The notes under the pieces were generated by a model that was not told the origin of the DNA, searched no databases, and saw only the letters and a program-made list of their open reading frames with translations. DNA of 30,953 nt from a virus. Lineage: Duplodnaviria; Caudoviricetes. Each line of letters begins with the position of its first letter. Positions within the stretch are counted from its first letter, which is position 1. Shown piece after piece: positions 18,872 through 30,953 of the stretch. The DNA is taken from IMG/VR virus record IMGVR_UViG_3300034411_000505, positions 1 through 30,953 of that record. The stretch is one strand, 5' to 3'. Made by a program: the position numbers and the translations under genes.

Positions 18872-19462
18872 CTAAAGATTCAACTCCTTGTGTAGATCAA
18901 CGATCGGCTTTAACACGTCCTGCATCTGCTCGCGCTCCTGCTTGGTCCACTCGTTGAGTGGTCGTTTGCAAACCTCCTTATTGATCCTGCGTAGAAATCT
19001 GGATACACCAGATATAAATGTCGGTTGTGGTTTGCTCCTTGCTGGTCTTGGCTCTTGCTCACCTAATAGCTCACACCATTGCAATTGCTGCTTGTCTGAT
19101 AACGTGGGGCGCTTCTGTGCGGCATCGTGCAGGCTTAGGTAGTTCTTCACTTCGTCTCCTGTCATCACGCCAGACAGGTAGCCGCGCAGGTCTTGCTTGT
19201 GTAGCCTGGACGCCTTCTCTATTAACGCAGCCGCCTTCAGTCTCTTGTTCACAGCGTCAACCATTGACCCCTTAGCATCATGTGTTGACTTATTAGCTTC
19301 TGTGTGTGCCTCTTTGATGGCACCTATCATTTGCTCATGTATGCTCAATGTATTAGCCCTTGGTTCCTTGTTTGTAAAGATCCTGTCGTATTGCTCTCGT
19401 GCATCCTGCGACCAATGTCTTGCGCTTATCCTGTCTCCTGTAATGTCGTTCTTTGCGCTCAT
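18872..19462 (-). CDS. Hypothetical protein
   Basis: Likely start MSAKNDITGD at 19462 via ATGA overlap. Confidence 0.6.
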   Translation of the reverse strand: MSAKNDITGDRISARHWSQDAREQYDRIFTNKEPRANTLSIHEQMIGAIKEAHTEANKSTHDAKGSMVDAVNKRLKAAALIEKASRLHKQDLRGYLSGVMTGDEVKNYLSLHDAAQKRPTLSDKQQLQWCELLGEQEPRPARSKPQPTFISGVSRFLRRINKEVCKRPLNEWTKQEREQMQDVLKPIVDLHKELNL

Positions 19463-19779
19463 TTCTGCTTGTAACAATATGTTGACTTGGGCAGACCTGC
19501 TGACAGTCTGAATTCCTCAATTTGCTTGGATAGCGCCTGCGCCGATATGCCGAGCTTTGCCGCCCTGTCTGATATGCTCACACCCTCACACACCGCAAGA
19601 CCTACCGCATACGCTACAGCCCATGTAGCGACCGTCTGAGATGATGACGATAGAACAAAGTCACATTGTAGGTTGAGCAGTCGCAAGAAGTGTCTGCTAG
19701 CTTCGCGGTATTCGTTGTCTGGTCCTGTGTCTTCCTCGTCTGGATAAACAAAGTTAACGCTTGGTTCTGTTGTAGTCAT
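19459..19779 (-). CDS. Helix-turn-helix protein, candidate late-gene regulator
   Basis: C-terminal HTH-like SISDRAAKLGISAQALSKQI; located just ahead of the packaging module. Confidence 0.55.
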   Translation of the reverse strand: MTTTEPSVNFVYPDEEDTGPDNEYREASRHFLRLLNLQCDFVLSSSSQTVATWAVAYAVGLAVCEGVSISDRAAKLGISAQALSKQIEEFRLSAGLPKSTYCYKQK

Positions 19780-19788
19780 TGTGTTGGT

Positions 19789-19816
19789 ATTATTAATAAT
19801 TTGTGTTAAATGTCAA
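19789..19816 (-). promoter_or_regulatory. Putative sigma70 promoter
   Basis: TTGACA (19816-19811), 16 nt, AATAAT in an AT-rich gap before ATG 19779. Confidence 0.45.
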
Positions 19817-19823
19817 GCTGATT

Positions 19824-20528
19824 TTACTTGCTCCTGCTCACTGTTCCTATCTTCATTGGCTCGCATATAGCTGTTACACCATTAAGCACGACACCGCATC
19901 CGAGTATGGGCTTGCGGTTGTATTTCTTGCCGTATGCCATTGCCTCTAGCTTATAATCAACTCCGCATCCTACCTGCATCCCGAACACTCTATTTGCCTT
20001 GTTTGCGTGGTATAGGACACCAAATTGCGCGTGTAGATGACCTTGAACAACCGATGCGTGTTCCTCTTGTGCGTTGAGATAAGCCGCGCATATTTGCCCA
20101 CCCTTGCCTCTGTCGCCGTGCTGGTAGATAACGCCGTCGATAGTAACTGACTCATAGCGGGGAACAACTTCCCATCCGTCTAGTCCCCAAAGATCTTTAT
20201 ATCCCTTTAGGACTGATAACGGCAAGCCTAAATCGGCAGCTTTGCGCTCTGTGAGTGAGTCGTGGTTGCCAACACACCAGGTAGCCCTTGGGAATGCCTT
20301 GTGTAGTCTCTGAACCTGCTTCTGTGCCTTCCGAAACTCCTTCTCCGAGTCCATCAACGATGGCGCTTTTGGATGGTAGCTAATAGATGCCCAGTCGACA
20401 AGATCGCCGATATGAACAACCTTATTGCAATTGTATTTCTTTTGAATGCTCTTAAGAAAAGGGATGTAGTCCCTGTGCATCGCCGGGGCGTGTGTGTCGC
20501 CGATTACTAATACTCGATTTCGTTTCAT
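19824..20528 (-). CDS. Calcineurin-like metallophosphoesterase
   Basis: All five motifs present: GDTH, GDLVD, GNHD, HGD, GHLH. Confidence 0.9.
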   Translation of the reverse strand: MKRNRVLVIGDTHAPAMHRDYIPFLKSIQKKYNCNKVVHIGDLVDWASISYHPKAPSLMDSEKEFRKAQKQVQRLHKAFPRATWCVGNHDSLTERKAADLGLPLSVLKGYKDLWGLDGWEVVPRYESVTIDGVIYQHGDRGKGGQICAAYLNAQEEHASVVQGHLHAQFGVLYHANKANRVFGMQVGCGVDYKLEAMAYGKKYNRKPILGCGVVLNGVTAICEPMKIGTVSRSK

Positions 20529-20543
20529 GTTGTTGATTGTTTG

Positions 20544-20732
20544 TTATTCGTCGTCAAATGTGATCTTAGCCAATGCTGTCTCGCTGTATCCTAGCGCGGC
20601 CAGTGCTGGCAGTAAGAGCTCGTCGAGAATTACTCTTGGATGCGGCTCATCTGTTCTTATTTCTATGGATACTGTTTTGGCAGGTCTCGTCTTTGCTTGG
20701 TGGAGCAATGTTTCTTCTAATGTTATTTTCAT
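20544..20732 (-). CDS. Hypothetical protein
   Basis: Likely start MKITLEE at 20732 after an A-rich leader. Confidence 0.55.
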   Translation of the reverse strand: MKITLEETLLHQAKTRPAKTVSIEIRTDEPHPRVILDELLLPALAALGYSETALAKITFDDE

Positions 20733-20752
20733 GTTGTTTTGAATTTTGTTTA

Positions 20753-20807
20753 TTTTAACCTTCGCGGATATCAACGGCTAGTGCCGTGGCTTCGCTTGCT
20801 GTTATGG
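20753..20807 (+). repeat. attC-like site 1 (terminal variant, 55 bp)
   Basis: TTTTAAC-CTTCG-CGGATATC-AACGGC-TAGT-GCCGT-GGCTTCG-CTTGCT-GTTATGG; left arm identical to site 5. Confidence 0.7.
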
Positions 20808-20956
20808 AATGGAATTGATGCCTTGTGTCGCTGCTTGTCGCGGTTCGTCTGCCCATCACAGGCCCACGGTTCGTCGGGTGAGTTCCCGCCGCGTAGATCT
20901 CCCCTCACAAGTGGGGTGCTGATTAGGCTCTTTAGCTGGCACATCAAAATTTCCAT
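20771..20956 (-). CDS. Hypothetical cassette ORF
   Basis: 61 aa spanning sites 2 to 1; ATG lies inside the R'' box of site 2 and the stop inside site 1. Confidence 0.4.
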   Translation of the reverse strand: MEILMCQLKSLISTPLVRGDLRGGNSPDEPWACDGQTNRDKQRHKASIPFHNSKRSHGTSR

Positions 20957-21015
20957 AACAAGTCGCTGCTGTTCAATCTCCGCTTCGCTCCGATGACAGA
21001 GCTTTGCCGTTCGCT
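20953..21015 (+). repeat. attC-like site 2 (63 bp)
   Basis: CCATAAC-AAGTC-GCTGCTGT...ACAGAGC-TTTGCC-GTTCGCT; TTCCATAAC is the exact reverse complement of GTTATGGAA at 20801. Confidence 0.85.
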
Positions 21016-21221
21016 CTAAGATTCCATTTAGTTACGGCGTCTTGCTCGGTCTCTCCCATCATGTGGACATCGCACGGGATACAGCGGACAAAGTAGATAT
21101 TACCCTCCCATGGATCCCCGTCTCGGTCGATGTGAAGCATGTCTAGCCTCCCGCAAAACGGACAGGCGAACAAGCCGTTGGAATCAACCTCGGGAACGCT
21201 GGTCTTGTTTTCGATACTCAT
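20973..21221 (-). CDS. Lar-like (restriction alleviation) zinc-ribbon protein, cassette-borne
   Basis: CPFCG...VRCIPC...AVTKWNLR pattern. Confidence 0.7.
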   Translation of the reverse strand: MSIENKTSVPEVDSNGLFACPFCGRLDMLHIDRDGDPWEGNIYFVRCIPCDVHMMGETEQDAVTKWNLRANGKALSSERSGD

Positions 21222-21251
21222 TGGCTCGGTGATTCAACTTTGACGTTATCT
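21165..21251 (+). repeat. attC-like site 3 (87 bp)
   Basis: GGCGAAC-AAGCC-GTTG(G)AATCA(A)CC...GGTGATTCAAC-TTTGAC-GTTATCT; two extrahelical bases. Confidence 0.85.
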
Positions 21252-21437
21252 AAAGAAACAGTCGAAAATGAACACTGACATCCCTAACCCGACAGTCAGC
21301 ACCCCACACATAATGAAAAGCCACCCTATGAGGTAATCATGCCAGCCACCATTTCGCTGAGATATTGAGCTAATAAATCGCTGGACTCGACCGCTGGGGC
21401 GTTCGTGGCTGGTTTTTGGTTTAGTGTCTGCTTTCAT
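21246..21437 (-). CDS. Small membrane protein, cassette-borne
   Basis: 63 aa with C-terminal hydrophobic helix; stop TAA is the TTA of the site 3 R' box. Confidence 0.6.
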   Translation of the reverse strand: MKADTKPKTSHERPSGRVQRFISSISQRNGGWHDYLIGWLFIMCGVLTVGLGMSVFIFDCFFR

Positions 21438-21476
21438 GTTGTTATTTGGCAGGATGTGTCGATTTGGTCGTTACCT
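21368..21476 (+). repeat. Degenerate attC-like site 4
   Basis: AGCTAAT-AAATC-GCTGGACTCGACCGC...ATGTGTCGATTTGGTC-GTTACCT; AAC mutated to AAT and L' eroded. Confidence 0.55.
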
Positions 21477-21569
21477 CAAATGAATGAGGGTTAGCGTTAG
21501 AGCGAACAGCGCCACCACAAACGCGGCGATTGCGAGGCGCAGCTTCCATCCTATTTCGGTTCCGTGCAT
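21471..21569 (-). CDS. 32 aa membrane mini-protein (MHGTEIGWKLRLAIAAFVVALFALTLTLIHLR), not in the ORF track
   Basis: Single hydrophobic helix; stop coincides with the R' box of site 4. Confidence 0.5.
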   Translation of the reverse strand: MHGTEIGWKLRLAIAAFVVALFALTLTLIHLR

Positions 21570-21586
21570 TTTAGTCGTTAAGATTT

Positions 21587-21614
21587 GCCAGCCGCCCAGC
21601 TAAGGACGACCGGC
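21587..21614 (-). other. GC-rich hairpin downstream of the SSB-like gene
   Basis: GCCGGTCGTCC-TTAGCT-GGGCGGCTGGC, 11 bp with G:U pairs; no clear U-tract. Confidence 0.4.
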
Positions 21615-21629
21615 TATTGTGGGGGATTG

Positions 21630-21956
21630 TTAAAAAGGGATGTCGTCACCATCTGCCGCCGCTGTTGCCGCTCCTTGTGGCATTGGGTGTCCTGCCTGCT
21701 GGTGGTTGCTTGCTTGGGCTTGTGGCTTGTCGTCAAACGTGCCGAGGATCTTGACGTTGCCAAGGATGTTACCTTTGACGCCTGCCTCTCGCTCGTCCTT
21801 GGACACGCTCTGGGTGATCATGCCGTTGTCACCATATTGACCTTCTTCGTCGTTTACGAATACGATAGCGTCTAGGTATTGACCTTTGGCGCCTTGAAAC
21901 AGTCGTTCTTTGTCGATCTTGGTTACGTCAATTTTAATTGCTAGTAATTTACTCAT
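21630..21956 (-). CDS. Putative phage single-stranded DNA-binding protein
   Basis: IKIDVTKIDK..GKxG.YLD N-domain, flexible linker, acidic C-terminal tip DGDDIPF. Confidence 0.7.
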   Translation of the reverse strand: MSKLLAIKIDVTKIDKERLFQGAKGQYLDAIVFVNDEEGQYGDNGMITQSVSKDEREAGVKGNILGNVKILGTFDDKPQAQASNHQQAGHPMPQGAATAAADGDDIPF

Positions 21957-21957
21957 G

Positions 21958-22281
21958 TTATTGTTGTTGTTGTTTTGTGGAGATTTGCTGGATCACGCCT
22001 TTCAAAACGTCACTCACTTTGTGGTTGGTTTGTGCGTGCTTGCTTACATTCTTAATGCTGTGAATGGCTGTTGCGTGTGATCGGTTAAAGTGTCGCCCGA
22101 TCTCTGGAAATGACATCTCTGCAACCTCTCGGCATAGCGTCATTGCAACCTGGCGGGCGAATGCTAGCGGCTGCTCTCTTGAGCCTCCCTTGATCTCGTC
22201 AAGTGTTACGCCCCAAGTATCACACACGGCATCTGTGACTGCCTCGGCGGTTTGGAGTTTTTGTTTTAGTGGTAGAATCAT
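21958..22281 (-). CDS. Stand-alone DnaA C-terminal (domain IV) helix-turn-helix protein
   Basis: ARQVAMTLCRE..MSFPEIGRHFNRSHATAIHS matches Bac_DnaA_C; start at 22281 follows an AAGGA RBS. Confidence 0.85.
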   Translation of the reverse strand: MILPLKQKLQTAEAVTDAVCDTWGVTLDEIKGGSREQPLAFARQVAMTLCREVAEMSFPEIGRHFNRSHATAIHSIKNVSKHAQTNHKVSDVLKGVIQQISTKQQQQ

Positions 22282-22332
22282 AATGTTTTCCTTGGTGGGT
22301 GTGCAAAATATCAGAAATGGAGTGCATGTCAA
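22278..22332 (-). promoter_or_regulatory. Promoter + leader/RBS module, copy B
   Basis: TTGACA-16 nt-(TGn)TATTTT, then 30 bp TTTGCACACCCACCAAGGAAAACATTATGA identical to 25723-25752. Confidence 0.8.
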
Positions 22333-22338
22333 TATTTA

Positions 22339-22392
22339 TTTTAACCTTCGCGGATATCAACGGCTTTGCCGTGACATCGCTAGCTGTTAGCT
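22339..22392 (+). repeat. attC-like site 5 (terminal variant, 54 bp)
   Basis: TTTTAAC-CTTCG-CG(G)ATATC(A)ACGGC-TTT-GCCGT-GACATCG-CTAGCT-GTTAGCT; canonical 5/6 nt spacers. Confidence 0.8.
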
Positions 22393-22601
22393 GTGGGGCG
22401 AACCATCTTTAGGTTTCTAGCAATCGCGGGCGATGTAACGCCCATTTTGGATGCCACTTCTTTCTGTGTAAACCCCTCACGGATTAATTTGTCTGCAATA
22501 GCCCCTTTCAGTAGGGCTGGCATTGGATGCCATTCCCCGTCCAGATGCCGGATCGCATGATCCCGTTGCGCTTTAGCTTTGTGTAATTGTTCTTCGGTCA
22601 T
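22380..22601 (-). CDS. Small helix-turn-helix protein
   Basis: GFTQKEVASKMGVTSPAIAR; reads through the R' box of site 5 and stops in its spacer. Confidence 0.7.
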   Translation of the reverse strand: MTEEQLHKAKAQRDHAIRHLDGEWHPMPALLKGAIADKLIREGFTQKEVASKMGVTSPAIARNLKMVRPTANS

Positions 22602-22657
22602 GTCTAGTTTTATTAGTCGTTAGGGTTAGAATGGCACGTTTTGTGTATTCATGGTCA

Positions 22658-22694
22658 TTGGTTCGGTGGTCATGAGTCAGCTTTGGCGTTATGC
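22658..22694 (+). repeat. attC right-arm remnant (site 6)
   Basis: 33 bp TTGGTTCGGTGGTCATGAGTCAGCTTTGGCGTT identical to 24274-24306; R' GTTATGC; no left arm found. Confidence 0.7.
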
Positions 22695-23024
22695 AATAGA
22701 GCTATTACCTTTAAGCCACCCCAAAAAGTAGTGACGCTGCCTGTTTGGTGCTGGAGATATGCTGAAAGATGATCCCAGCACAGCCTCGTCAATTTCATCG
22801 AAGCTCATATCCTCAAAAGTTTCCTCATGATAATCATGAACGCATTGCCATACTTGATCGAACGTCCACGCAGCTCCTTGCCACCTGTCTTTTATTTGAT
22901 CTAGCCCTAGCTGATCTGTCGCCCTTTCTATTTCAGAATGAGCATAACAAGTCGCTGCACCCGATGCAGAACCGCTCTCTAGTTTGTTTTTAGTCTCTTG
23001 GTTGTCTTCGTTTTGTGTGTTCAT
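22689..23024 (-). CDS. Hypothetical cassette protein
   Basis: 111 aa; start inside the site 7 loop, stop in the R' box of site 6. Confidence 0.7.
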   Translation of the reverse strand: MNTQNEDNQETKNKLESGSASGAATCYAHSEIERATDQLGLDQIKDRWQGAAWTFDQVWQCVHDYHEETFEDMSFDEIDEAVLGSSFSISPAPNRQRHYFLGWLKGNSSIA

Positions 23025-23070
23025 ATCGTTATTTGGTTATTGTTCTGCACTGGTGAGCTTTACGTTAGCT
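22942..23070 (+). repeat. attC-like site 7 (129 bp)
   Basis: GCATAAC-AAGTC-GCT(G)CACCCG(A)TGCAGAAC...GTTCTGCACTGGTGAGC-TTTAC-GTTAGCT; R'' is the reverse complement of GTTATGC at 22688. Confidence 0.9.
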
Positions 23071-23359
23071 AAAATAAGTCAGCGATGGTGGCAGCTATGT
23101 TGTCTGAGTTGTTGGCGAGATGTTCGATATATTCACATGCGTTAAGAATGGCTGTATTCTCCCAGCCGTCCTTTAGCATCTGTCTCTCTTGCTTTCGGAC
23201 CTCTGCGGCTGTTAAGCACTTAATGCCATGCCTGATGCTCGGATCGTCTACATTGCGAGGTGAGTAAACAAAAATGAAAGCTAACAAGTCGCTGCACCTC
23301 GACTCGCTACCGTCCTGCACTCCGTTTTCGTTGCTAGGTTTATCTGTATTTTTTTCCAT
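23069..23359 (-). CDS. Hypothetical cassette protein
   Basis: 96 aa; start inside the site 8 loop, stop at the edge of the site 7 R' box. Confidence 0.7.
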   Translation of the reverse strand: MEKNTDKPSNENGVQDGSESRCSDLLAFIFVYSPRNVDDPSIRHGIKCLTAAEVRKQERQMLKDGWENTAILNACEYIEHLANNSDNIAATIADLF

Positions 23360-23407
23360 CGTTTAGTTGTTCAGTCTTTGCGCTCGCCGTTGAGCTTTAC
23401 GTTCGGC
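23279..23407 (+). repeat. attC-like site 8 (129 bp)
   Basis: AGCTAAC-AAGTC-GCTGCACC...CGTTGAGC-TTTAC-GTTCGGC; R'' is the reverse complement of GTTAGCT at 23064. Confidence 0.85.
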
Positions 23408-24216
23408 AAATAAGAATCCACGGACATCATGCATCGGAGGATTTCAGCGACGACTTGCGGTACGATGGCGTTTCCGAGTCCTCTAAGTCTGTCCACCCTG
23501 CGGGATACCCCATCAACCACTCTATCCATTCTGGGTTCAAGTGCCCACTGGTTTTTCCATCCGCCTTCTGTGCTTCTTGTGTTGCCCCGTATAGGTTCCC
23601 CGTTTGGGTGTCCCCCGCTTCCCTCATCTTTTGCCGTCTCGCGTCCACGTTTAGCCATGATTCGCTGCTCTCGCTCGCTCGCGGAGTGCGCCACCAACCA
23701 CACCCTGTCTCTTTGGTGGGGCGCACCTGCGGCGCAAGCTGGAATAACAATCGACCTTGTGGTGTAGCCTTCGTTTTCCAAATCACAGCATACGGCGTCG
23801 AGTCCCATTGTGACATGACCAGCAACGTTTTCAGCAAGCACCCAAGAGGGTCGCGACCGCTTAATAACGCTAAACATTTGCGGCCAGAGATGGCGGCTAT
23901 CTTCCTTCCCCTTTTTCTTTCCGATGCTGCTGAAAGGTTGGCAAGGGTATCCGCCGGTAATAAGGTCAATTGGTCCATAGTTTTTTGGGTCTAGTGTTTT
24001 TATATCGCCGTGAATCGGCACATTGGGAAAGTTTTTGTTGAGCACCTTTTGCGCCCACGGTTCGATTTCACAGAATCCCACGGTTTCGATGCCTCCCACC
24101 CACTGAGCGGCCAGTGCAAAGCCACCGATTCCGCTAAACAAATCAAGATGCCGAACAAGTCGCTGCGTCCGACCGCTAACCGTTCCTGAGTCTATTTCGT
24201 TTTCTGGTGTGTCCAT
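23371..24216 (-). CDS. dcm: DNA (cytosine-5) methyltransferase, alpha chain, copy 1
   Basis: Motif I DLFSGIGG, IV GGYPCQ, VI ENV, VIII HQRDRVW and X LGNAIVP; motif IX not seen in this frame. Confidence 0.92.
   Translation of the reverse strand: MDTPENEIDSGTVSGRTQRLVRHLDLFSGIGGFALAAQWVGGIETVGFCEIEPWAQKVLNKNFPNVPIHGDIKTLDPKNYGPIDLITGGYPCQPFSSIGKKKGKEDSRHLWPQMFSVIKRSRPSWVLAENVAGHVTMGLDAVCCDLENEGYTTRSIVIPACAAGAPHQRDRVWLVAHSASEREQRIMAKRGRETAKDEGSGGHPNGEPIRGNTRSTEGGWKNQWALEPRMDRVVDGVSRRVDRLRGLGNAIVPQVVAEILRCMMSVDSYLPNVKLNGERKD
23427..23978 (-). CDS. Nested alternative-frame beta chain of C5 methyltransferase copy 1
   Basis: 183 aa wholly inside dcm in another frame; carries motif IX-like LNPEWIEWLMGYPAGWTD; conserved in copy 2. 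Confidence 0.75.
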   Translation of the reverse strand: MDQLTLLPADTLANLSAASERKRGRKIAAISGRKCLALLSGRDPLGCLLKTLLVMSQWDSTPYAVIWKTKATPQGRLLFQLAPQVRPTKETGCGWWRTPRASESSESWLNVDARRQKMREAGDTQTGNLYGATQEAQKADGKTSGHLNPEWIEWLMGYPAGWTDLEDSETPSYRKSSLKSSDA

Positions 24217-24268
24217 AAGTTATTGATTTGTGCTGTCACTCGGGCGGCCGTTGAGCTTTACGTTCTGC
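24150..24268 (+). repeat. attC-like site 9 (119 bp)
   Basis: GCCGAAC-AAGTC-GCTGCGTCCGACCGC...GCGGCCGTTGAGC-TTTAC-GTTCTGC; TGCCGAAC is the reverse complement of GTTCGGCA at 23401. Confidence 0.85.
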
Positions 24269-24273
24269 ATTAT

Positions 24274-24310
24274 TTGGTTCGGTGGTCATGAGTCAGCTTT
24301 GGCGTTCGCT
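24274..24310 (+). repeat. attC right-arm remnant (site 10)
   Basis: Lies 5 bp after site 9; 33 bp identical to site 6; R' GTTCGCT. Confidence 0.7.
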
Positions 24311-24492
24311 AAAAATTCCTTGAGGTGCTTCTTGCATAGCCTAATTCCCTTAATTTCTGCATTTATTCTTGCCTTTGGGATCGAGTGTTGTCCTGAAGCA
24401 TTCAGCTTTAGCTGACTTATTTTGTCGTCCCATTTATTAAACAACTCAGCGAACAAATCGCTGGAGATCAATTTCGTTCGTTCCTCACTCAT
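24286..24492 (-). CDS. Hypothetical cassette protein
   Basis: 68 aa; ATGA-coupled to dcm copy 2 inside site 11; stop inside site 10. Confidence 0.65.
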   Translation of the reverse strand: MSEERTKLISSDLFAELFNKWDDKISQLKLNASGQHSIPKARINAEIKGIRLCKKHLKEFLANAKADS

Positions 24493-24513
24493 GACTCAGC
24501 TGGGTCGTTCGCA
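24448..24513 (+). repeat. attC-like site 11 (66 bp)
   Basis: AGCGAAC-AAATC-GCTG(G)AG(A)TCA...TGACTCAGC-TGGGTC-GTTCGCA; R'' is the reverse complement of GTTCGCT at 24304. Confidence 0.9.
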
Positions 24514-25250
24514 AGAGAAATTGCCCTCATAAGTTCGTAGGCTACTTGTGGCACGATGGCATTTCCAAGTGCTCGCAATCGGTGTGATTGATTGGGTATC
24601 CCATAAACCATTCGAGCCACTGCGGGTTCACTATTCCAGTAGCCATTTTCGCCAACCCCCAACTCTGCAACTTCTTTCGATTCCCCGCTCCACCACCTAG
24701 GACTGTCGGTCCTCCCGTTGTCGTTACGCTCGCAGTGGGCCACAATCCAGTATCTGGATCGCTTGTGCCATGCCCCGACGCCGCAAGCTGGAATATCGTA
24801 TGTCCGGCAGGCGAAGCCTTCCGCTTCCAGTTCAGCGATGATCTTGTCGAGTGCCAGCGTTCGGATGTTAGGAGAGTTTTCTCCAATGATCCAAGTAGGC
24901 TTTGACTCCTTGATGATTCGGAGCATTTGAGGCCACAAGTCCCGCTCATCTTCATCTCCTCTTTGCTTCCCCGCGACCGAGTAGGGCTGACAAGGGAATC
25001 CTCCCGTAAGGACATCGCATTCGACTCCTCGCATTTTTCTGATGTCTCCGTGGTTTGGTACATTCGGCCATTTACTTTCCAAAACTCTTTCTGCATAATC
25101 TTCTATTTCACTGAATCCAATCGTTTCCCATCCCGCCCATTGTGCAGCTAGAGCGAATCCGCCTATCCCACTGAATAAATCAAGATGGCGAACAAGACGG
25201 TGCTGACCAACGCCCTCGCTCGTTCCTCGCTCTGTCGTGGCAGACCTCAT
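24489..25250 (-). CDS. dcm: DNA (cytosine-5) methyltransferase, alpha chain, copy 2
   Basis: DLFSGIGG, GGFPCQ, ENS (variant of ENV), HKRSRYW, LGNAIVP. Confidence 0.9.
   Translation of the reverse strand: MRSATTERGTSEGVGQHRLVRHLDLFSGIGGFALAAQWAGWETIGFSEIEDYAERVLESKWPNVPNHGDIRKMRGVECDVLTGGFPCQPYSVAGKQRGDEDERDLWPQMLRIIKESKPTWIIGENSPNIRTLALDKIIAELEAEGFACRTYDIPACGVGAWHKRSRYWIVAHCERNDNGRTDSPRWWSGESKEVAELGVGENGYWNSEPAVARMVYGIPNQSHRLRALGNAIVPQVAYELMRAISLANDPAES
24542..25096 (-). CDS. Nested alternative-frame beta chain of C5 methyltransferase copy 2 (start uncertain)
   Basis: Motifs SG.CGLKC, WK.KA.P.G..IFQLA, LWPT and VNPQWLEWFMGYPINHTD parallel the copy 1 beta chain. Confidence 0.7.
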   Translation of the reverse strand: MQKEFWKVNGRMYQTTETSEKCEESNAMSLREDSLVSPTRSRGSKEEMKMSGTCGLKCSESSRSQSLLGSLEKTLLTSERWHSTRSSLNWKRKASPAGHTIFQLAASGHGTSDPDTGLWPTASVTTTGGPTVLGGGAGNRKKLQSWGLAKMATGIVNPQWLEWFMGYPINHTDCEHLEMPSCHK

Positions 25251-25259
25251 GCGTTCGAC
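25187..25259 (+). repeat. attC-like site 12 (73 bp)
   Basis: GGCGAAC-AAGAC-GGT(G)CTG(A)CCA(A)CG...CGTGGCAGACC-TCATGC-GTTCGAC; R'' is 6/7 complementary to GTTCGCA at 24507. Confidence 0.85.
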
Positions 25260-25726
25260 TCGTATGGGTCGGGTTCATACTTGTTGAGTAAGTCGATCAC
25301 CTGCTGCGACTTCGCTTTTAGCTGTTTAACCCAAACTCCCGAATGGGATATTTGGTCTAGAATTTCCTGCTCTTGCTGCTTCACCTTGATCCTCAGATCG
25401 CGGTTCTCTCGTAGTAGTTCTTCCTCTCTTTTTGTGTCTTCTGTTTTACCCATAGTGTCGTTGTTTATCTGCCCTCGATAAAGCTTCATGTGGTTGACCA
25501 GCTCAATTTGCTTGGTGGTCATCTCGTTAATTTCCCGCTCAAGCTCTTCGGCGTGGCTCTTCATTTCGTGATAAGCCATATTCCAGTCGTACAGCCTCGT
25601 TGAGCTGAGATCGCATTGGATGCGGGTTTCTTCGTCGTCAGTTCTTGGTGTATCGGTATCCATAGTATTTTTGATGTTTGTCTTGCAACTATTAAGCATC
25701 TGTTTAGAGTTGGCGTCTTCGCTCAT
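25247..25726 (-). CDS. Hypothetical coiled-coil protein (DTPRTD...HAEELERE motif)
   Basis: Likely start at 25726 after the duplicated promoter/RBS (an ATGA-coupled start at 25801 is also in frame); ends via ATGA inside site 12. Confidence 0.65.
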   Translation of the reverse strand: MSEDANSKQMLNSCKTNIKNTMDTDTPRTDDEETRIQCDLSSTRLYDWNMAYHEMKSHAEELEREINEMTTKQIELVNHMKLYRGQINNDTMGKTEDTKREEELLRENRDLRIKVKQQEQEILDQISHSGVWVKQLKAKSQQVIDLLNKYEPDPYESNA

Positions 25727-25777
25727 AATGTTTTCCTTGGTGGGTGTGCAAACTAGCATAAACTGGGAGCGTGTCAA
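25723..25777 (-). promoter_or_regulatory. Promoter + leader/RBS module, copy A
   Basis: TTGACA-16 nt-(TGn)TAGTTT, then the 30 bp block identical to 22278-22307. Confidence 0.8.
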
Positions 25778-25797
25778 TAATTGTTTTGTATTTGTTT

Positions 25798-27057
25798 TCA
25801 ATCATACTCCTCGAATCGCTGATACTGCCCGTTCATGCGCAGATTCAGCACAACGCCTCTTTCGCCTTCTCGGTCCTTACTGATAACAACCTTTTCATCC
25901 TCCGGGTCGATGGTGAGCAATACATCAGCATCATTGACGATGGCTCGGCTCTCTCTGGTGCGCCCTTCCTCGTTGAGTTGTGACGCACTGATAACAGGAC
26001 ATCCATGCTGTTTTGCCATCTTCTTCAGCCCGCGTGATATTTCGGCGACTTCCTGCTCCCTGCTCTTACCTTGACCCATGACCGAGACCAACTGAATATA
26101 GTCAACCACGATTAGGTCAATATCGAATCCGAGCTTCTTTCGCTGTGCGGCACTCGCCATCATTGATTCAAGTGTGAGGTCGTAATTATCACAGATTGTC
26201 AGGTTGTTCGCTTGGTTCATCTCGCTTATTCCTGTTTTGATCCTGCCAATGTCGCTTTTAGTGAGCTTCTCTCCCTTCTTAGCGAGAAGTGCATTACCTC
26301 TGATATTCATCCCGTTGGCTAGTGATCTAATACCAAGCTTGCCGGCGCTAGTCTCAAACGAGTAAGCCAGGACGCTTTTTCCTTGGTTGAGAAACGACTG
26401 AGCAACCTGCATCATCAGCATGGTTTTTCCGCATGATGACGGAGCGGCGATAACCCACAGCTGTTCCTTGTCAAGCCCTCCTGTGTGGTGGTCTATTGAG
26501 TGTATGCCAGATGGGACGCCTGTTTGCAGTTCTGGGCGGTTGGCTGTCTCGATAATATTTACCATCTCTTCCGTGATTTCCTCCGTAGTTTTCCACGGCT
26601 TTGAGGATTTGAGCTGCAACAAGGCATCGTTTAGCTTGTCCTGTAGCCCTGCAATTACGGTCTCTGCCTCTGCTCCCTGCTCTATGCTGGCAATGGCGGC
26701 TGTAGATGCCTCACGGGTGATCCTTGTTGCTTTATACGCCTTGACGGTCTCAACGTGTTGTTTGATGTGTGAAAGACCTAGGCACTTGTCGCGCAGTCTC
26801 CAGATGGTTGCAGCTAGTTCCTTGCCATCATGCGATCCGAGGACGTCTGGCTCTATGTCCATGACTTCGACGCTGTGGACACGTCCATCATCATAAAGAC
26901 GGTTCGCCATAGTCCAGATGCGCTGGTTGTCCTTGGTCGTGAACGATGCCTGATCTATGCCGTCTCCGCGCAGGGTCATGATGACTGATTCTGGATCTAG
27001 GAGTAATGCGCCGAGGAGGTATTCCTCGCTTAGTATGTTAGTGTAAGTATTTTTCAT
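25798..27057 (-). CDS. dnaB: DnaB-like replicative helicase
   Basis: Walker A AAPSSCGKT, IVVDYIQL, REQEVAEISRGLK, SQLNE..RES.AI..DAD; N-terminal EEYLLGALL. Confidence 0.93.
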   Translation of the reverse strand: MKNTYTNILSEEYLLGALLLDPESVIMTLRGDGIDQASFTTKDNQRIWTMANRLYDDGRVHSVEVMDIEPDVLGSHDGKELAATIWRLRDKCLGLSHIKQHVETVKAYKATRITREASTAAIASIEQGAEAETVIAGLQDKLNDALLQLKSSKPWKTTEEITEEMVNIIETANRPELQTGVPSGIHSIDHHTGGLDKEQLWVIAAPSSCGKTMLMMQVAQSFLNQGKSVLAYSFETSAGKLGIRSLANGMNIRGNALLAKKGEKLTKSDIGRIKTGISEMNQANNLTICDNYDLTLESMMASAAQRKKLGFDIDLIVVDYIQLVSVMGQGKSREQEVAEISRGLKKMAKQHGCPVISASQLNEEGRTRESRAIVNDADVLLTIDPEDEKVVISKDREGERGVVLNLRMNGQYQRFEEYD

Positions 27058-27070
27058 TGGTTTTGATTGG

Positions 27071-28012
27071 TTAAAATTGGAATCCTGGCGTAACGTGTGT
27101 GCGCTCGTTAATTATGTCTACATAGTCTGGATTAAGCTCGATTAGCTCGGCGCTACGCCCAAGCTCCAACGCCACCATGCCGGTCGTGCCACTGCCTCCG
27201 AACGGATCAAGAACTGTGCCTCCTGTTGGACATCCTGCGAGGATGCACGGCTTGATTAAATCGGGCGGGAACGTGGCGAAGTGTGCGCCGCTGAATGGCT
27301 TGGTGGTGACCTCCCAGACTGAGCGTTTGTTGACCATCCCATCAGCGCCCCATACTTTTTTCATTTGGTCGGCGTCGTTTCTCATAGAATCAACCTTATT
27401 GTTTCCTGGTGCATGTGGCTTGGTCGCAGCGTTATCCTTGATCGCATCCGCATCATAATAATACTTCGGCTTCTTACTCAGCAGGAAGATATACTCATGA
27501 GCCTTCGTGCATCGGTCGGTCACGCTCTCTGGCATCGGGTTCGGCTTGCTCCAGATGATGTCCTGTCTCAGATACCAGCCGTCAGCTTGCAGGGCTAGTG
27601 CCACACGCCAAGGTATGCCGATGAGGTCTTTGGGTTTGAGTCCGATGTCCCTTGCTTTCTGGATAGGCTTGATGCCTTCGGTTGTCCCTTTGTGCGTGCC
27701 TTGCTTGCCCTCTAATGATGAAGGATGAACCGAGCCGTCAGGATTGCTTCCTTTGCCGCTTCCGGCATAACTATCCCCAAGGTTCAGCCAAAGCGTGCCG
27801 TCATCGGCAAGCACCCGCTTTACCTCACGGAACACGTTGACCATGCTCTCTACAAATGCCTCTGGTGTTTCCTCAAGTCCTATCTGCTCGTCGTTTCCGT
27901 AGTCACGTAGTCCGAAGTAAGGTGGTGATGTGACGCAGCAATTAACGCTCCCCGCTTCCATCGTTGGCAGTATGTCGAGGCAATTTCCTGTTTGGGTGTT
28001 TATTTTATTCAT
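27071..28012 (-). CDS. DNA N4-cytosine/N6-adenine methyltransferase (beta class)
   Basis: Catalytic TSPPY precedes SAM-binding LDPFGGSGTT; HFATFP. Confidence 0.92.
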   Translation of the reverse strand: MNKINTQTGNCLDILPTMEAGSVNCCVTSPPYFGLRDYGNDEQIGLEETPEAFVESMVNVFREVKRVLADDGTLWLNLGDSYAGSGKGSNPDGSVHPSSLEGKQGTHKGTTEGIKPIQKARDIGLKPKDLIGIPWRVALALQADGWYLRQDIIWSKPNPMPESVTDRCTKAHEYIFLLSKKPKYYYDADAIKDNAATKPHAPGNNKVDSMRNDADQMKKVWGADGMVNKRSVWEVTTKPFSGAHFATFPPDLIKPCILAGCPTGGTVLDPFGGSGTTGMVALELGRSAELIELNPDYVDIINERTHVTPGFQF

Positions 28013-28227
28013 TGGTTTTTATTGGTTAAAATTGTATTTTTCGTTGCGTTCTGTGTGGCTTTTACAGCAACTGACATTCCAGTCAAGAAAATTGCTTGCC
28101 CTTGTTTGATTTTTGTTTCGTCGTTTTGCTCAATCCCTTCATTTGCAAGGGATAAGCCTCTGTTGTATCTGGTCTCGATTGTGTTATCGGTCTTGGTTTT
28201 TAGTTCCTGGTCTGTCATGTTTTGCAT
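28009..28227 (-). CDS. Hypothetical protein
   Basis: 72 aa; ATGA overlap with the methyltransferase start. Confidence 0.55.
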   Translation of the reverse strand: MQNMTDQELKTKTDNTIETRYNRGLSLANEGIEQNDETKIKQGQAIFLTGMSVAVKATQNATKNTILTNKNQ

Positions 28228-28369
28228 TTTTTGTGTATGCCCTGTTTGGCTCTGTGTTTCGTTCTGATGCGTCCAAATTGTTTTTCGTCATAGGTTGTCC
28301 GATTTTACATTGAAACGTCTCACCGTGGAGTTATTTGCAATTGGCGGCATGTTTGATGTTGTGGCGTGA

Positions 28370-29089
28370 TTACCATAGCATGTTTTTAATGTTCTTGCGG
28401 TAGATCTCTTTTTTCGCCTCTGCGTTGATCTCGGCAAATGATTTCTGCTGTGGTCTGCTCGCTGTCGTCTGTTGCCGTGATAGCCAGTTAGTAATGAACT
28501 TTCTCCAGAGCTTCTTTTTCGCTTTGGATGGATTTGAGATTAGCCATTGGTTCATGGCTTCGATTTGTTGAGTAACATGAGCGTTCGGATATGCTACCTC
28601 CCACTGCTTGATGTCGTCCGCTGAAATGTTTTGCCAGCCACCTGCCGATGACCACGAAATTTCGTGAGTCTCGGCGTCAGCTAATGTATTCTTCTTTTCA
28701 TTCTTCTTATTCTTATTCTTCTTGTTACTGGTCGCTTGTTGGTCGCTCGTTGGTCGCTCGTTGGTCGCTTCGCTGGTCGTGTCTTGGAACTTATCGTAGT
28801 TAACTACCTCAACCACAGTGCCTTGGCGTGATGTTTTGATGGTCAATTCGTTGGTCGATTTTAGCTTAGTTAGTGCAGTCCTCACTTGGCGAACACTTAA
28901 GCCAGTCTCTGCTGCAAGAAGGTCACGACCAGTAAGGAACTTGCCGCGCTCGACTACCGCGCCTCTATACTTTTTATCCTTATGATTCGCCATCAGAAGG
29001 CAGTGCAGAAACACTCGCATTACGTTCACGTCATCATACCATTCCCAGTCCAGGAGTGACCGGTGTAGTTTGATCCAGCCGCTCTTCAT
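28370..29089 (-). CDS. Phage replication initiator / replisome organiser (lambda O-like role)
   Basis: GWIKLHRSLLDWEW, winged HTH LAAETGLSVRQVRTALTKL, internal iterons; upstream of DnaB. Confidence 0.85.
   Translation of the reverse strand: MKSGWIKLHRSLLDWEWYDDVNVMRVFLHCLLMANHKDKKYRGAVVERGKFLTGRDLLAAETGLSVRQVRTALTKLKSTNELTIKTSRQGTVVEVVNYDKFQDTTSEATNERPTSDQQATSNKKNKNKKNEKKNTLADAETHEISWSSAGGWQNISADDIKQWEVAYPNAHVTQQIEAMNQWLISNPSKAKKKLWRKFITNWLSRQQTTASRPQQKSFAEINAEAKKEIYRKNIKNMLW
28689..28780. repeat. Putative replication origin: ~11-bp iterons TGGTCGCTCGT (4 copies plus a partial) next to a purine/AT-rich tract
   Basis: Tandem copies at 28729, 28740, 28751, 28762 and 28774, adjoining an AAGAAGAATAAGAATAAG tract inside the initiator gene. 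Confidence 0.7.
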
Positions 29090-29196
29090 TCGCCGTCCTC
29101 CTCTCTGAATACTTCAAGCATCATTTCCCTTGCTTCGTCGCTTAGTGCCTCATAGAGAGACGCTAGAACGTTGTTTACTGTTTCGGCATTGCTCAT
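29086..29196 (-). CDS. 36 aa mini-protein (MSNAETVNNVLASLYEALSDEAREMMLEVFREEDGE), not in the ORF track
   Basis: ATGA-coupled to the initiator; its 3' end provides the GAGGAGG RBS. Confidence 0.55.
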   Translation of the reverse strand: MSNAETVNNVLASLYEALSDEAREMMLEVFREEDGE

Positions 29197-29230
29197 AATT
29201 TTAATTGTTGCGCCCCGGAGGGGCTGGTTG

Positions 29231-29455
29231 TTAGTTGATATAAGTAACTGACGGTTCACAGTGTCCGTAAATGGTCATCTTGGTATTAGGTGGGACATTA
29301 TAAGATAGCTTTAGCCATTCGATAACCTCCTCTACCGTAGAACCGGCGCATCCTGCAATGTAATATCTGCCTATGTAACACTGATATACACCTCTAGTTA
29401 ATCTTAGTCTTGCTGTTATTTTTCCTTTCGGCATGTCGCTTTTCATTGTTTTCAT
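29231..29455 (-). CDS. Hypothetical protein
   Basis: Likely start MKTMKSD after an A/C-rich leader. Confidence 0.5.
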   Translation of the reverse strand: MKTMKSDMPKGKITARLRLTRGVYQCYIGRYYIAGCAGSTVEEVIEWLKLSYNVPPNTKMTIYGHCEPSVTYIN

Positions 29456-29548
29456 TGTTTTTGTTGTTTTTAGTGGTGTTTGTTGTTGTTCCTCTCGGTG
29501 GACGCATAATGCGCACAAAGCTCACAAGGTGTCGATAACTTTCTGTAA

Positions 29549-29599
29549 TAAAAAACACAAGCAAGCCCCGAACCCTTATAAAACAAAGGATTCGAGGCT
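29549..29599 (-). terminator. Putative terminator hairpin after the VRR-NUC gene
   Basis: AGCCTCGAATCCTT-TGTTTTAT-AAGGGTTCGGGGCT followed by TGCTTGTGTTTTTT. Confidence 0.55.
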
Positions 29600-29620
29600 A
29601 AACTTTTTTTGCGGTTTTTT

Positions 29621-29923
29621 CTATTTCGTCTCAATTCTGAGGATAGTAGCGCATATTTCAGCGGCTGTTAGGCAGACGTTTATTTGCCCTTGCCATGATG
29701 AGTGCATCTTTCTTTGCGCCTCCGTCAGTTGTCGCCGGCTTGCTGTTTTAGTTGGGTCTTTCACTTCGATTAGGTAGTTCTTACCCTGCCAGCCGATCAC
29801 AAGGTCAGGGAATCCTCGCCCTGCTCCCGATGCGTCAAATATGGTTGCCTCTGGTAGTGCGTCGCGTAGCTCTTCGACTAGGCACTTGTGGTTGTCGTCT
29901 GTTCTTTTTGCGTATCTTGGCAT
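29621..29923 (-). CDS. VRR-NUC / PD-(D/E)XK nuclease (putative Holliday junction resolvase)
   Basis: GFPDLVIG...YLIEVKD...LTEAQ...W.G. Confidence 0.85.
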   Translation of the reverse strand: MPRYAKRTDDNHKCLVEELRDALPEATIFDASGAGRGFPDLVIGWQGKNYLIEVKDPTKTASRRQLTEAQRKMHSSWQGQINVCLTAAEICATILRIETK

Positions 29924-29924
29924 G

Positions 29925-30188
29925 TTATTTTATCTGGTTGTTAATTCTTTGTTTTTGCTTGTCTCTGTTTGGTTTGCTCATGCTCTTGGTCATAACGCAC
30001 GCGTTCCAAATCCGCATCGCCTGTTTAGGTTGCCACTCTGGCAACGTGTCGAATTGTCCGCATTTGCATGTTGTTATTGTGCATCCTGGCTCGTAGCTAA
30101 TATCTGGTCGCGTCTTGCATTCGAGGCACATGGCGCAGAGTAACCGCGCCTCTGTGATCTCGTTTGCAATGCTTTCATGGTTACACAT
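29925..30188 (-). CDS. Small zinc-ribbon protein (Lar-like pattern)
   Basis: CLECK...CKCG...AMRIWN; likely start ATG 30188 overlapping the upstream stop. Confidence 0.55.
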   Translation of the reverse strand: MCNHESIANEITEARLLCAMCLECKTRPDISYEPGCTITTCKCGQFDTLPEWQPKQAMRIWNACVMTKSMSKPNRDKQKQRINNQIK

Positions 30189-30953
30189 CTGGAGAGCCTG
30201 TGTGACCTTCCATTTCTGCCTCCTCGTCATAGACCGAGAACGACGCACGACCTAAGAGAGCAGGCTTAGGGAATAACGGCGCCCAGTAGTCAGACTCTGC
30301 CGCCTTGATGATACGCCCTAGAAGGTGATCGAATATCATTTGTCCATCCATAATGTCAACCTTGGGTATCTCTGTTACCGCCACCTCATACGGCGCAGAT
30401 GATTGCTGCCAGATGATTAGAAATCGGTCGCGCTGGTCGTCTGGGTTTTGGAGGTTGTGCATCTGTAGGTAATGGGCGGCCTGTGCATGATAGCCAAACT
30501 TGCCGATTGTCTTGGCGAATCCTGTAGCCGTAAAGTCTGCGGTCGTCTTTAGATCAGCGAGATAGTCAGTTCCCTCTGGCACAAAGTCGGCGAGAGCTTT
30601 TAGTCCTACGGGCTTTTCAGAGTGCGGAGTCATCACGCGGTTAAGCATGACAACCTGCGACGCGCTGCGCTCGATGATTTCGGCGGACGGCTTGAACTTG
30701 CTGGTTAATATCTCAGCGGCTTTTCTCGCGCTTGCTAGGTCTTCCGTCTTGATGATAGACACACCGCGCTCTTCTTCCTGTGCTTTCCATTCACGAGCTT
30801 CCTTCGTGCGGTAGCTGTCAAACTCCGACATTGTAAACTGACTGTCGAAGTCCTCCGGGCTGGTCACTAAACAATCTACAAGAGATCCCCAGCGCATAGC
30901 GCCGGTGCTGTATTGTTTTGGATGGTATCGCCAACGGTAGAGGCTGGATTTGA
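30181..30953 (-). CDS. RecE / exonuclease VIII-like PD-(D/E)XK protein (DUF3799-like), 5'-truncated by the window edge
   Basis: AMRWGSLVD, LKALADF..LADLKTT, GYHAQAAHY, APYEV; frame stays open to the end of the window. Confidence 0.85.
   Translation of the reverse strand, partial: KSSLYRWRYHPKQYSTGAMRWGSLVDCLVTSPEDFDSQFTMSEFDSYRTKEAREWKAQEEERGVSIIKTEDLASARKAAEILTSKFKPSAEIIERSASQVVMLNRVMTPHSEKPVGLKALADFVPEGTDYLADLKTTADFTATGFAKTIGKFGYHAQAAHYLQMHNLQNPDDQRDRFLIIWQQSSAPYEVAVTEIPKVDIMDGQMIFDHLLGRIIKAAESDYWAPLFPKPALLGRASFSVYDEEAEMEGHTGSPDV

Follow-up and report, generated by a model that had tools for sequence, protein, structure and literature searches.

Clusters of attC sites that lack an integrase (CALINs) are known from phages: 17 were found in 10,705 phages by Qi et al. 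2023, those of TJE1 and PH101 were called typical of bacterial arrays, and 5 of the 6 phage attC sites assayed recombined with IntI1 (PMC9892861). The array treated here occupies positions 20,753 to 25,259 of a tailed-phage record (IMGVR_UViG_3300034411_000505; Duplodnaviria; Caudoviricetes), which was analysed over its whole length of 30,953 bases (the window); the record is linear and about 90% complete. A first-pass annotation had allowed that such an array might be undescribed; phage attC clusters were already in print, and the antisense, translated-through layout was found in no paper searched. The array is a genuine phage CALIN with inverted, translated-through cassettes and is not a complete integron. 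It is built into an operon of predicted phage early genes that all run one way, its sites being on the other strand; units are probably added, removed, and rearranged at G^TT, and the likely agent is the integron integrase (IntI) of a likely verrucomicrobial host. The comparisons below establish the anatomy and family of the sites, their polarity, the antisense genes with starts in their own attC and stops at the R' box or borrowed from a neighbour, and precise natural insertions and deletions.

All 12 attC-like elements that had been proposed are present at their coordinates on the + strand (Table 1). The pairing of R'' with R' and of L'' with L' follows established attC anatomy: the AAC and GTT boxes are present in 9 of the 10 full sites, and L'' and L' are complementary over the first three pairs in 9 of 9 sites tested, with bulged stems on the + strand. 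The exception at the boxes is site 21368, which reads AAT in the window; a C at 21374 restores AAC in the contigs of all 4 runs. A 5-nt spacer between R'' and L'' is the norm for attC and had been proposed for all full sites; it holds for eight of them, the spacers at 20753 and 22339 being 4 nt. A 13th crossover, absent from the first-pass annotation, lies at G21577; the window has no intact attC before it, and relative L239 has a full attC at the matching position. The proposal of one gene in most intervals also stands for most, each of the two methyltransferases having an overlapping second frame as well; it fails for 21578-22386 (two genes plus a promoter) and for 24263-24304 (no gene of normal size). 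A CALIN is defined by several same-strand attC sites spaced by no more than 4 kb, with no integron integrase in the vicinity (PMC4889954, PMC9892861). The sites here lie on one strand, each within 4 kb of the next; no integron integrase is found in the 30,953-base record, which extends more than 5 kb on each side of the array. Promoterless sense genes read from Pc, as in a complete integron, are not what the array holds.

A covariance model (R1) was built from 30 attC sites of four verrucomicrobial genomes (29 used; one without the family arms was dropped). Five of the ten full sites score strongly (24150, 22942, 23279, 21165, and 25187; E <= 2.6e-6; all on +); sites 20953 (E 0.027) and 24448 (E 0.2) match weakly, site 21368 partially (E 1.1), and 20753, 22339, and both half sites are missed. 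The best match outside the array has E 0.029. Short sites score low because the model was built from long ones (118-129 nt). Site 24150 and a site of the chromosomal integron of genome G142 share 82% identity over 114 nt, and both arms of 24150 are nearly identical to those of a Persicirhabdus site. A structure scanner for the pattern R''-spacer-L''-loop-L'-spacer-R', written after the sites had been seen, returned 7 sites for 20701-25300 and, on both strands, none for the remainder of the window; on 200 shuffles it returned 0 sites in 179, 1 in 20, and 2 in 1.

Folding gives a mixed picture. The bottom strand folds better than the top in 7 of 9 window sites and in 28 of 40 lineage sites, by small margins in both sets; the full attC fold is the lowest-energy one in about 3 of 10 sites only, hairpin z-scores are mostly non-significant, and most sites could not be told from shuffles by lowest-energy folding alone. 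With six pairs forced, the median bottom-strand folding probability is 0.18 in the window (9 sites), 0.048 in the lineage (40 sites), and 0.33 in bacteria (29 sites); the constraint is unlike that of PMC5371416, so these values compare only loosely with published ones. On this modelling the window sites are in the usable range.

The unit of movement was read from 36 metagenome and 4 viral loci that carry the short lineage-type attC (the anchor), plus L013 and the window; 35 of the 41 loci were kept for counts of block ends, pairs, frames, folding, and left contexts (out: L238 and L247 as chance matches, and 4 redundant loci). The short lineage site is followed by many different sequences from GTT onward. 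Pairs with the same left flank have the same attC in 39 of 40 cases (the exception is probably a mis-called end) and a different right flank in 28 of 40; pairs with the same right flank and different left flanks have different attC sites in 6 of 6; and no pair shares attC and right flank with a different left flank. Read in this way from the sequences, the mobile unit is TT-gene-attC-G, in which the gene travels with the attC to its right. The array spans contain 107 distinct homology-block ends. The G^TT zone, with 4.5% of the bases, has 41 of them and the AAC zone, with 5.9%, has 5; another 5 are in loops, and 56 lie elsewhere, backbone and undetected half sites included; block polarity is 28 ends at GTT (right side) vs 1 start at AAC.

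Gain and loss of whole units at G^TT, a comparison that the first-pass annotation had proposed, is seen between relatives, with some breaks elsewhere. One 320-bp cassette is present or absent between L235 and L251, between unlike attC sites with 4 nt shared at the joint, in flanks identical at 705/706 and 974/974 positions (1679/1680); L246 is without exactly 23402-24262, the methyltransferase 1 cassette. L002 is without both cassette runs; L003 is without the first and has a different cassette behind the same short site. Contigs of 8 runs break at 20801, 22687, 23065/23066, 24304, and other positions; at the joints of 20801, 24304, and 21577 the sequences have no base in common ahead of the G. 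Contig X14 (one contig, depth 3.3) joins G25253 directly to TT21010, and a joint 24505-25252 occurs in 2 runs (letters between not known). The Lar cassette is found elsewhere with other neighbours. Cassette 20802-21009, whose gene is in a cassette 97-98% identical in L013 and in G190:C260, lies in the latter, an unrelated large phage-like contig, with other neighbours and beside a sense cassette. That contig (G190:C260:23481-26691; L513) is binned in a bacterial genome, and its array mixes antisense and sense cassettes; it was rejected as host chromosome, being phage-like. In another phage or prophage (G190:C186:20897-21725; L526), there is a methyltransferase 1 homolog whose match starts at the G^TT border, and a Lar-like gene. 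A division of the window's sites into two separate arrays with backbone between them is weakened by relatives in which 21578-22386 is bordered by G^TT and attC.

The genes of the array are all antisense to the attC polarity and overlap the sites, an orientation that the first-pass annotation had not mentioned. By longest frame, bodies between adjacent sites are 17 sense, 1 antisense, and 1 tied in bacteria (n = 19), and 1 sense, 16 antisense, and 11 tied in the window and its anchor-bearing relatives (n = 28). An in-frame ATG lies inside the site in 21 of 29 distinct non-anchor sites with a long open reading frame (ORF) to the left, and in none of the 10 short anchor sites. Of the genes at 49 distinct G^TT junctions, 13 end at the R' box or short of it; the other 36 continue into the attC of the neighbour, and 35 of these 36 have AAC in frame and take their stop from that site. 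One and the same gene has different tails in the window and in L013, and the N-terminus of methyltransferase 2 is a translation of nearly the entire 25187 site. The read-through frame is the one with the earliest stop in phage and bacterial sites alike (median codon 7); the phage therefore likely exploits a stop property that the attC family already had. A mirror reading, with the crossover at AAC and genes in sense orientation, was rejected: frames at AAC are evenly spread (7, 8, 6), unlike the fixed frame at G^TT, and the attC follows its left flank.

Searches of the phage's own record and of 4 related virus records (the record of L258 lay outside the search) found no tyrosine recombinase, nor was an attI-like motif of the kind that lies next to phage intI genes found in the array, attI being diverse enough for another type to be missed. 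The first-pass annotation had the phage build and shuffle its accessory genes by attC recombination: the natural variants bear out shuffling at G^TT, and that the phage does so by itself is not borne out. An IntI query over 266 loci and the window matches L153 and L131 only, and none of the marine anchor-bearing loci. Genomes of the same attC family are a different matter: IntI scores above the cut-off in 4 of 5 genomes picked for that family and in 3 of 3 picked for matches to array DNA, and L387 has intI and attC sites together. The chromosomal integron of G142 (C4:558969-629499; L527, L532-L534) has more than 130 cassettes, at least 4 of them antisense and phage-type by inspection (e.g. L527:13001-13858), among them a PAPS-reductase-like phage gene that starts inside its attC and one that resembles an L235 gene. 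The 4 found by inspection are relied on, the automatic orientation count (15 antisense, 82 sense, 36 unclear of 133) being noisy; they suggest cassette traffic between host and phage pools. Since genomes with the same attC family encode IntI, and a chromosomal integron holds phage-type antisense cassettes, host IntI is likely the enzyme that acts on the phage sites. Judged from the attC family alone, the host is likely verrucomicrobial.

Some phages do encode the enzyme. L153/L427, L428, L429, and L430 have a full IntI (L153: TIGR02249, 347 bits), an attI-like site, and antisense cassettes of related attC type; in a tree of 23 selected IntI rows these four L153-like enzymes group with 100/100 support, the bacterial rows being unresolved. 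In L153 (2758-6900), L428, L429, L430, and L432 the attI-like motif lies just before IntI and the cassettes read toward intI; the IntI of L432 is truncated, and in L153 a terminase-like gene follows intI. Among 80 IntI-bearing viral loci, 9 are antisense, 4 are sense, and 67 have too few sites or are tied; none is close to the present phage.

It is proposed that the recombining bottom strand is the - strand, and that IntI, supplied in trans by the host during infection or by a co-infecting phage, would excise and insert units at G^TT. Transcription would run leftward from two promoter-leader repeats, with all cassettes in one operon and stops often overlapping the next start, so that the phage would need no Pc or attI. 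Genes would survive reordering intact, since each has its start codon within its own attC and, in one frame, can use a stop of whichever attC adjoins it. The bottom strand would be the coding strand; were replication to proceed in the direction of transcription, this strand would serve as the exposed lagging-strand template, and in bacteria that orientation gives more excision (PMC5371416). A negative GC skew on the + strand fits this idea and is inseparable from coding bias. Half sites and mismatched arms may be products of another process, illegitimate or homologous, by which sites are damaged and genes become fixed in position.

Several results weigh against shuffling by a host integrase. 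Short sites have the 4-nt spacer; phage sites fold more weakly than bacterial ones (median 0.048 vs 0.33); and native arms do better than swapped arms in 15 of 19 phage sites vs 29 of 29 bacterial sites. The loci were fetched by attC pattern, and pairs and block ends share ancestry and are not independent events. Among 29 distinct loose-end positions listed in the array (153 further rows lie beyond these), only 9 are at G^TT, the others being at the AAC end (5), in loops (4), or elsewhere (11). Two bodies run on into a different attC (at 20953 and at 23294), a joint 20960-21244 lies off G^TT and removes the interior of a site, and half sites are frequent in relatives; a second, ordinary and non-specific recombination therefore also acts. 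The L246 deletion lies within a 19-nt identical arm, so homology could explain it. On the host side, terminase matches occur in 13 of 301 family genomes at 32-39% identity only, the short lineage attC in 0 of 401 family genomes, and the right-arm pattern gave 0 matches in the genome contig collection. The missing 10% or so of the phage genome could hold a recombinase.

That last point leads to a reading in which the cassette logic is the same and the recombinase, an IntI or a small Xer-like enzyme, is encoded by the phage in the missing part or by a helper phage of the same host. The linear, incomplete record leaves room for it, and the L153/L427 and L428-L430 phages, one well-supported clade, combine IntI, an attI-like site, and antisense cassettes. 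In L153-type phages, however, intI adjoins the array at the downstream end of the operon, and the matching stretch of the window is complete, up to the terminase, without recombinase or attI-like motif; the marine anchor-bearing loci gave no IntI match, and between the 80 IntI-bearing viral loci and the window's group there are just three matches, all short, at 67-75% identity. We regard a phage-encoded enzyme as unlikely. G407, tried as a stand-in for the missing part of the genome, was rejected, its replication module being different.

The sites might also be host-derived repeats that serve as linkers for homologous or microhomology recombination by an exonuclease VIII-type system, with no integrase. 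In mosaic phages, exchanges at boundary or linker sequences need a shared stretch and fall anywhere within it. The exonuclease VIII gene of the window, arms that are shared and swapped between sites, common half sites, the recurrence of gene-start and promoter repeats as well, and the L246 deletion in 19 nt of identity speak for linkers; but symmetric crossovers would then be expected, whereas the observed ones are polar, attC sites never keep their right flank while changing the left one, and overlap at the joints is 4 nt (L235/L251) or none. Some events fit homologous linkers; the array as a whole does so poorly, and we give this reading slightly less credence than a phage-encoded enzyme. 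A dead relic, built long ago by an integron and now decaying, with sites kept because they encode protein ends, would account for sites that are degenerate or halved, for their weak folding, and for the coding constraint on them. It is very improbable, since two observations point to recent movement: a whole cassette is present or absent in contigs whose flanks disagree at 1 of 1680 bases, and an unrelated phage has a cassette that is 97% identical. Site-specific exchange at G^TT by a host IntI, accompanied by some ordinary recombination, thus stays the preferred explanation.

Table 1 Features of the attC array and its borders in the window. Crossovers are given by the G of G^TT; aa, amino acids.
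Feature	Position	Strand	Remarks
Small backbone gene joined to first attC	20544..20732	-	Occurs without that attC in L002, L003
Short lineage-type attC, 4-nt first spacer	20753..20807	+	Crossover G20801; two different foreign right arms join at 20801 in contigs
Cassette gene, 61 aa, no family	20771..20956	-	Tail and stop from 20753 site
attC	20953..21015	+	Crossover G21009
Lar-like restriction alleviation gene	20973..21221	-	Start in 21165 site, stop in 20953 site; whole-cassette move in L232
attC	21165..21251	+	Crossover G21245; R1 E 1.5e-7
Cassette gene, 63 aa, no family	21246..21437	-	Stop overlaps R' box
Degenerate attC (AAT for AAC; C in other strains)	21368..21476	+	Crossover G21470
Short unit, 32-codon ORF on - (21471-21569)	21471..21577		Ends at G21577, attC lost; joints to 21578
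Two-gene unit plus promoter	21578..22338	-	Occurs without attC sites in L002
Gene of two-gene unit, no named family	21630-21956	-
Gene of two-gene unit, DnaA C-terminal-like	21958-22281	-
Promoter-leader repeat copy 1, sigma-70-like	22278..22342	-	10/12 matches, extended -10
Short lineage-type attC	22339..22392	+	Crossover G22386
Helix-turn-helix transcriptional regulator, cassette gene	22380..22601	-	Stop in 22339 site
Half site (right arm only)	22658..22694	+	Crossover G22688; break at 22687 in 3 runs
Cassette gene, 111 aa, no family	22689..23024	-	Start in 22942 site
attC	22942..23070	+	Crossover G23064; R1 E 4.4e-11; breaks at 23065/23066
Cassette gene, 96 aa, no family	23069..23359	-	Start in 23279 site
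attC, arms match poorly	23279..23407	+	Crossover G23401
DNA cytosine methyltransferase 1	23371..24216	-	Overlapping second frame 23427-23978; cassette 23402-24262 missing from L246
attC closest to verrucomicrobial chromosomal sites	24150..24268	+	Crossover G24262
Half site (right arm only)	24274..24310	+	Crossover G24304; same as 22658-22690 up to GTT
Cassette gene, 68 aa, no family	24286..24492	-
attC	24448..24513	+	Crossover G24507
DNA cytosine methyltransferase 2	24489..25250	-	Overlapping second frame 24542-25096; joints at both borders
attC	25187..25259	+	Crossover G25253; R1 E 2.6e-6
First ORF of operon, likely start 25726	25247..25801	-	Stop in 25187 site, overlapping next start
Promoter-leader repeat copy 2	25723..25787	-	Short attC follows in L256, L258, L259, not in window

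The array is placed between replication and packaging genes. Genes of the window are all on the - strand and include terminase, major head, DnaB, a DnaD-like loader, and exonuclease VIII. Sequencing runs that contain the stretch are mostly marine; two are RNA runs, with small shares of it. No cultured relative was found; 69 phage records match the array, the 20 listed by the methyltransferases only, and the best terminase identity to phage records is about 25%. A search of 19000-30953 against Rfam gave 0 matches. The second ORF of each cytosine methyltransferase also matches a methyltransferase family (phrog_363 plus phrog_1008), and the two-frame methyltransferases 1 and 2 presumably resemble two-chain enzymes with overlapping genes. 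A third DNA methyltransferase lies outside the array (27071-28012), with no attC detected. The small protein of 21958-22281, which resembles the DNA-binding C-terminal domain of DnaA, could compete for host origin boxes. Only copy 1 of the promoter-leader repeat is listed by the promoter scan; a strong sigma-70-like promoter (19789-19816, -; 11/12 matches) lies ahead of the genes that lead to terminase.

The left contexts of 42 short attC sites form 14 clusters, one of which, of promoter type, has 19 of the sites. Genes that bear it in the window are without it in L002 and L003. Its left contexts without the promoter have their final ~15 bases in common with the promoter type and lead straight into a start codon, the pattern that a promoter deletion between short repeats would leave. 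L237, L245, and L262, with backbones unlike that of the window, have the same promoter-plus-short-attC module. A wider picture can be drawn tentatively and is, on balance, doubtful: marine verrucomicrobial phages may share a pool of antisense cassettes, shuffle it with host IntI, trade with the chromosomal integron, and mint cassettes by means of the promoter-plus-short-attC module, behind which any gene would become a cassette. If this were true, phages would be an observable site of cassette genesis. The formation of new cassettes has been called largely unknown (PMC5371416); the coexistence here of alleles with and without attC makes the question testable. The array also offers a site-specific explanation for part of phage mosaicism, which is usually ascribed to illegitimate recombination, and suggests that a phage can exchange methyltransferases and an anti-restriction gene by means of its host's gene-capture enzyme. 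The recombination site is at the same time coding sequence, and genes gain interchangeable C-terminal tails.

Compared with described systems, the array is closest in kind to the CALINs of TJE1, PH101, and P12002L, which are likewise integrase-less phage attC clusters with methyltransferase cargo; systematic antisense genes, translation through the sites, and natural shuffling are not reported in the accessible text of that article (PMC9892861). No paper describing antisense, translated-through attC arrays in phages was found in a search that left subscription journals mostly outside. The sedentary chromosomal integrons of Verrucomicrobiales (Persicirhabdus sediminis L332; Akkermansiaceae G002, G003, and G142) have the same attC family and G^TT polarity and, unlike the phage, have intI, sense genes (17 of 19 bodies), and better-pairing arms; the short 54-55-nt attC of the phage was not found in 401 family genomes. 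GWT (attG-type) insertion and SALINs provide a route by which IntI can place cassettes in attI-less DNA; that work, in the part available, deals with bacterial chromosomes rather than phage operons and does not address antisense cargo (10.1101/2022.09.11.507474). The phage integrons of L153/L427-L430, which we have not found in print, share with the window the inverted layout, the starts in attC, and the frame-0 tails, and differ from it in having IntI and an attI-like site beside the array.

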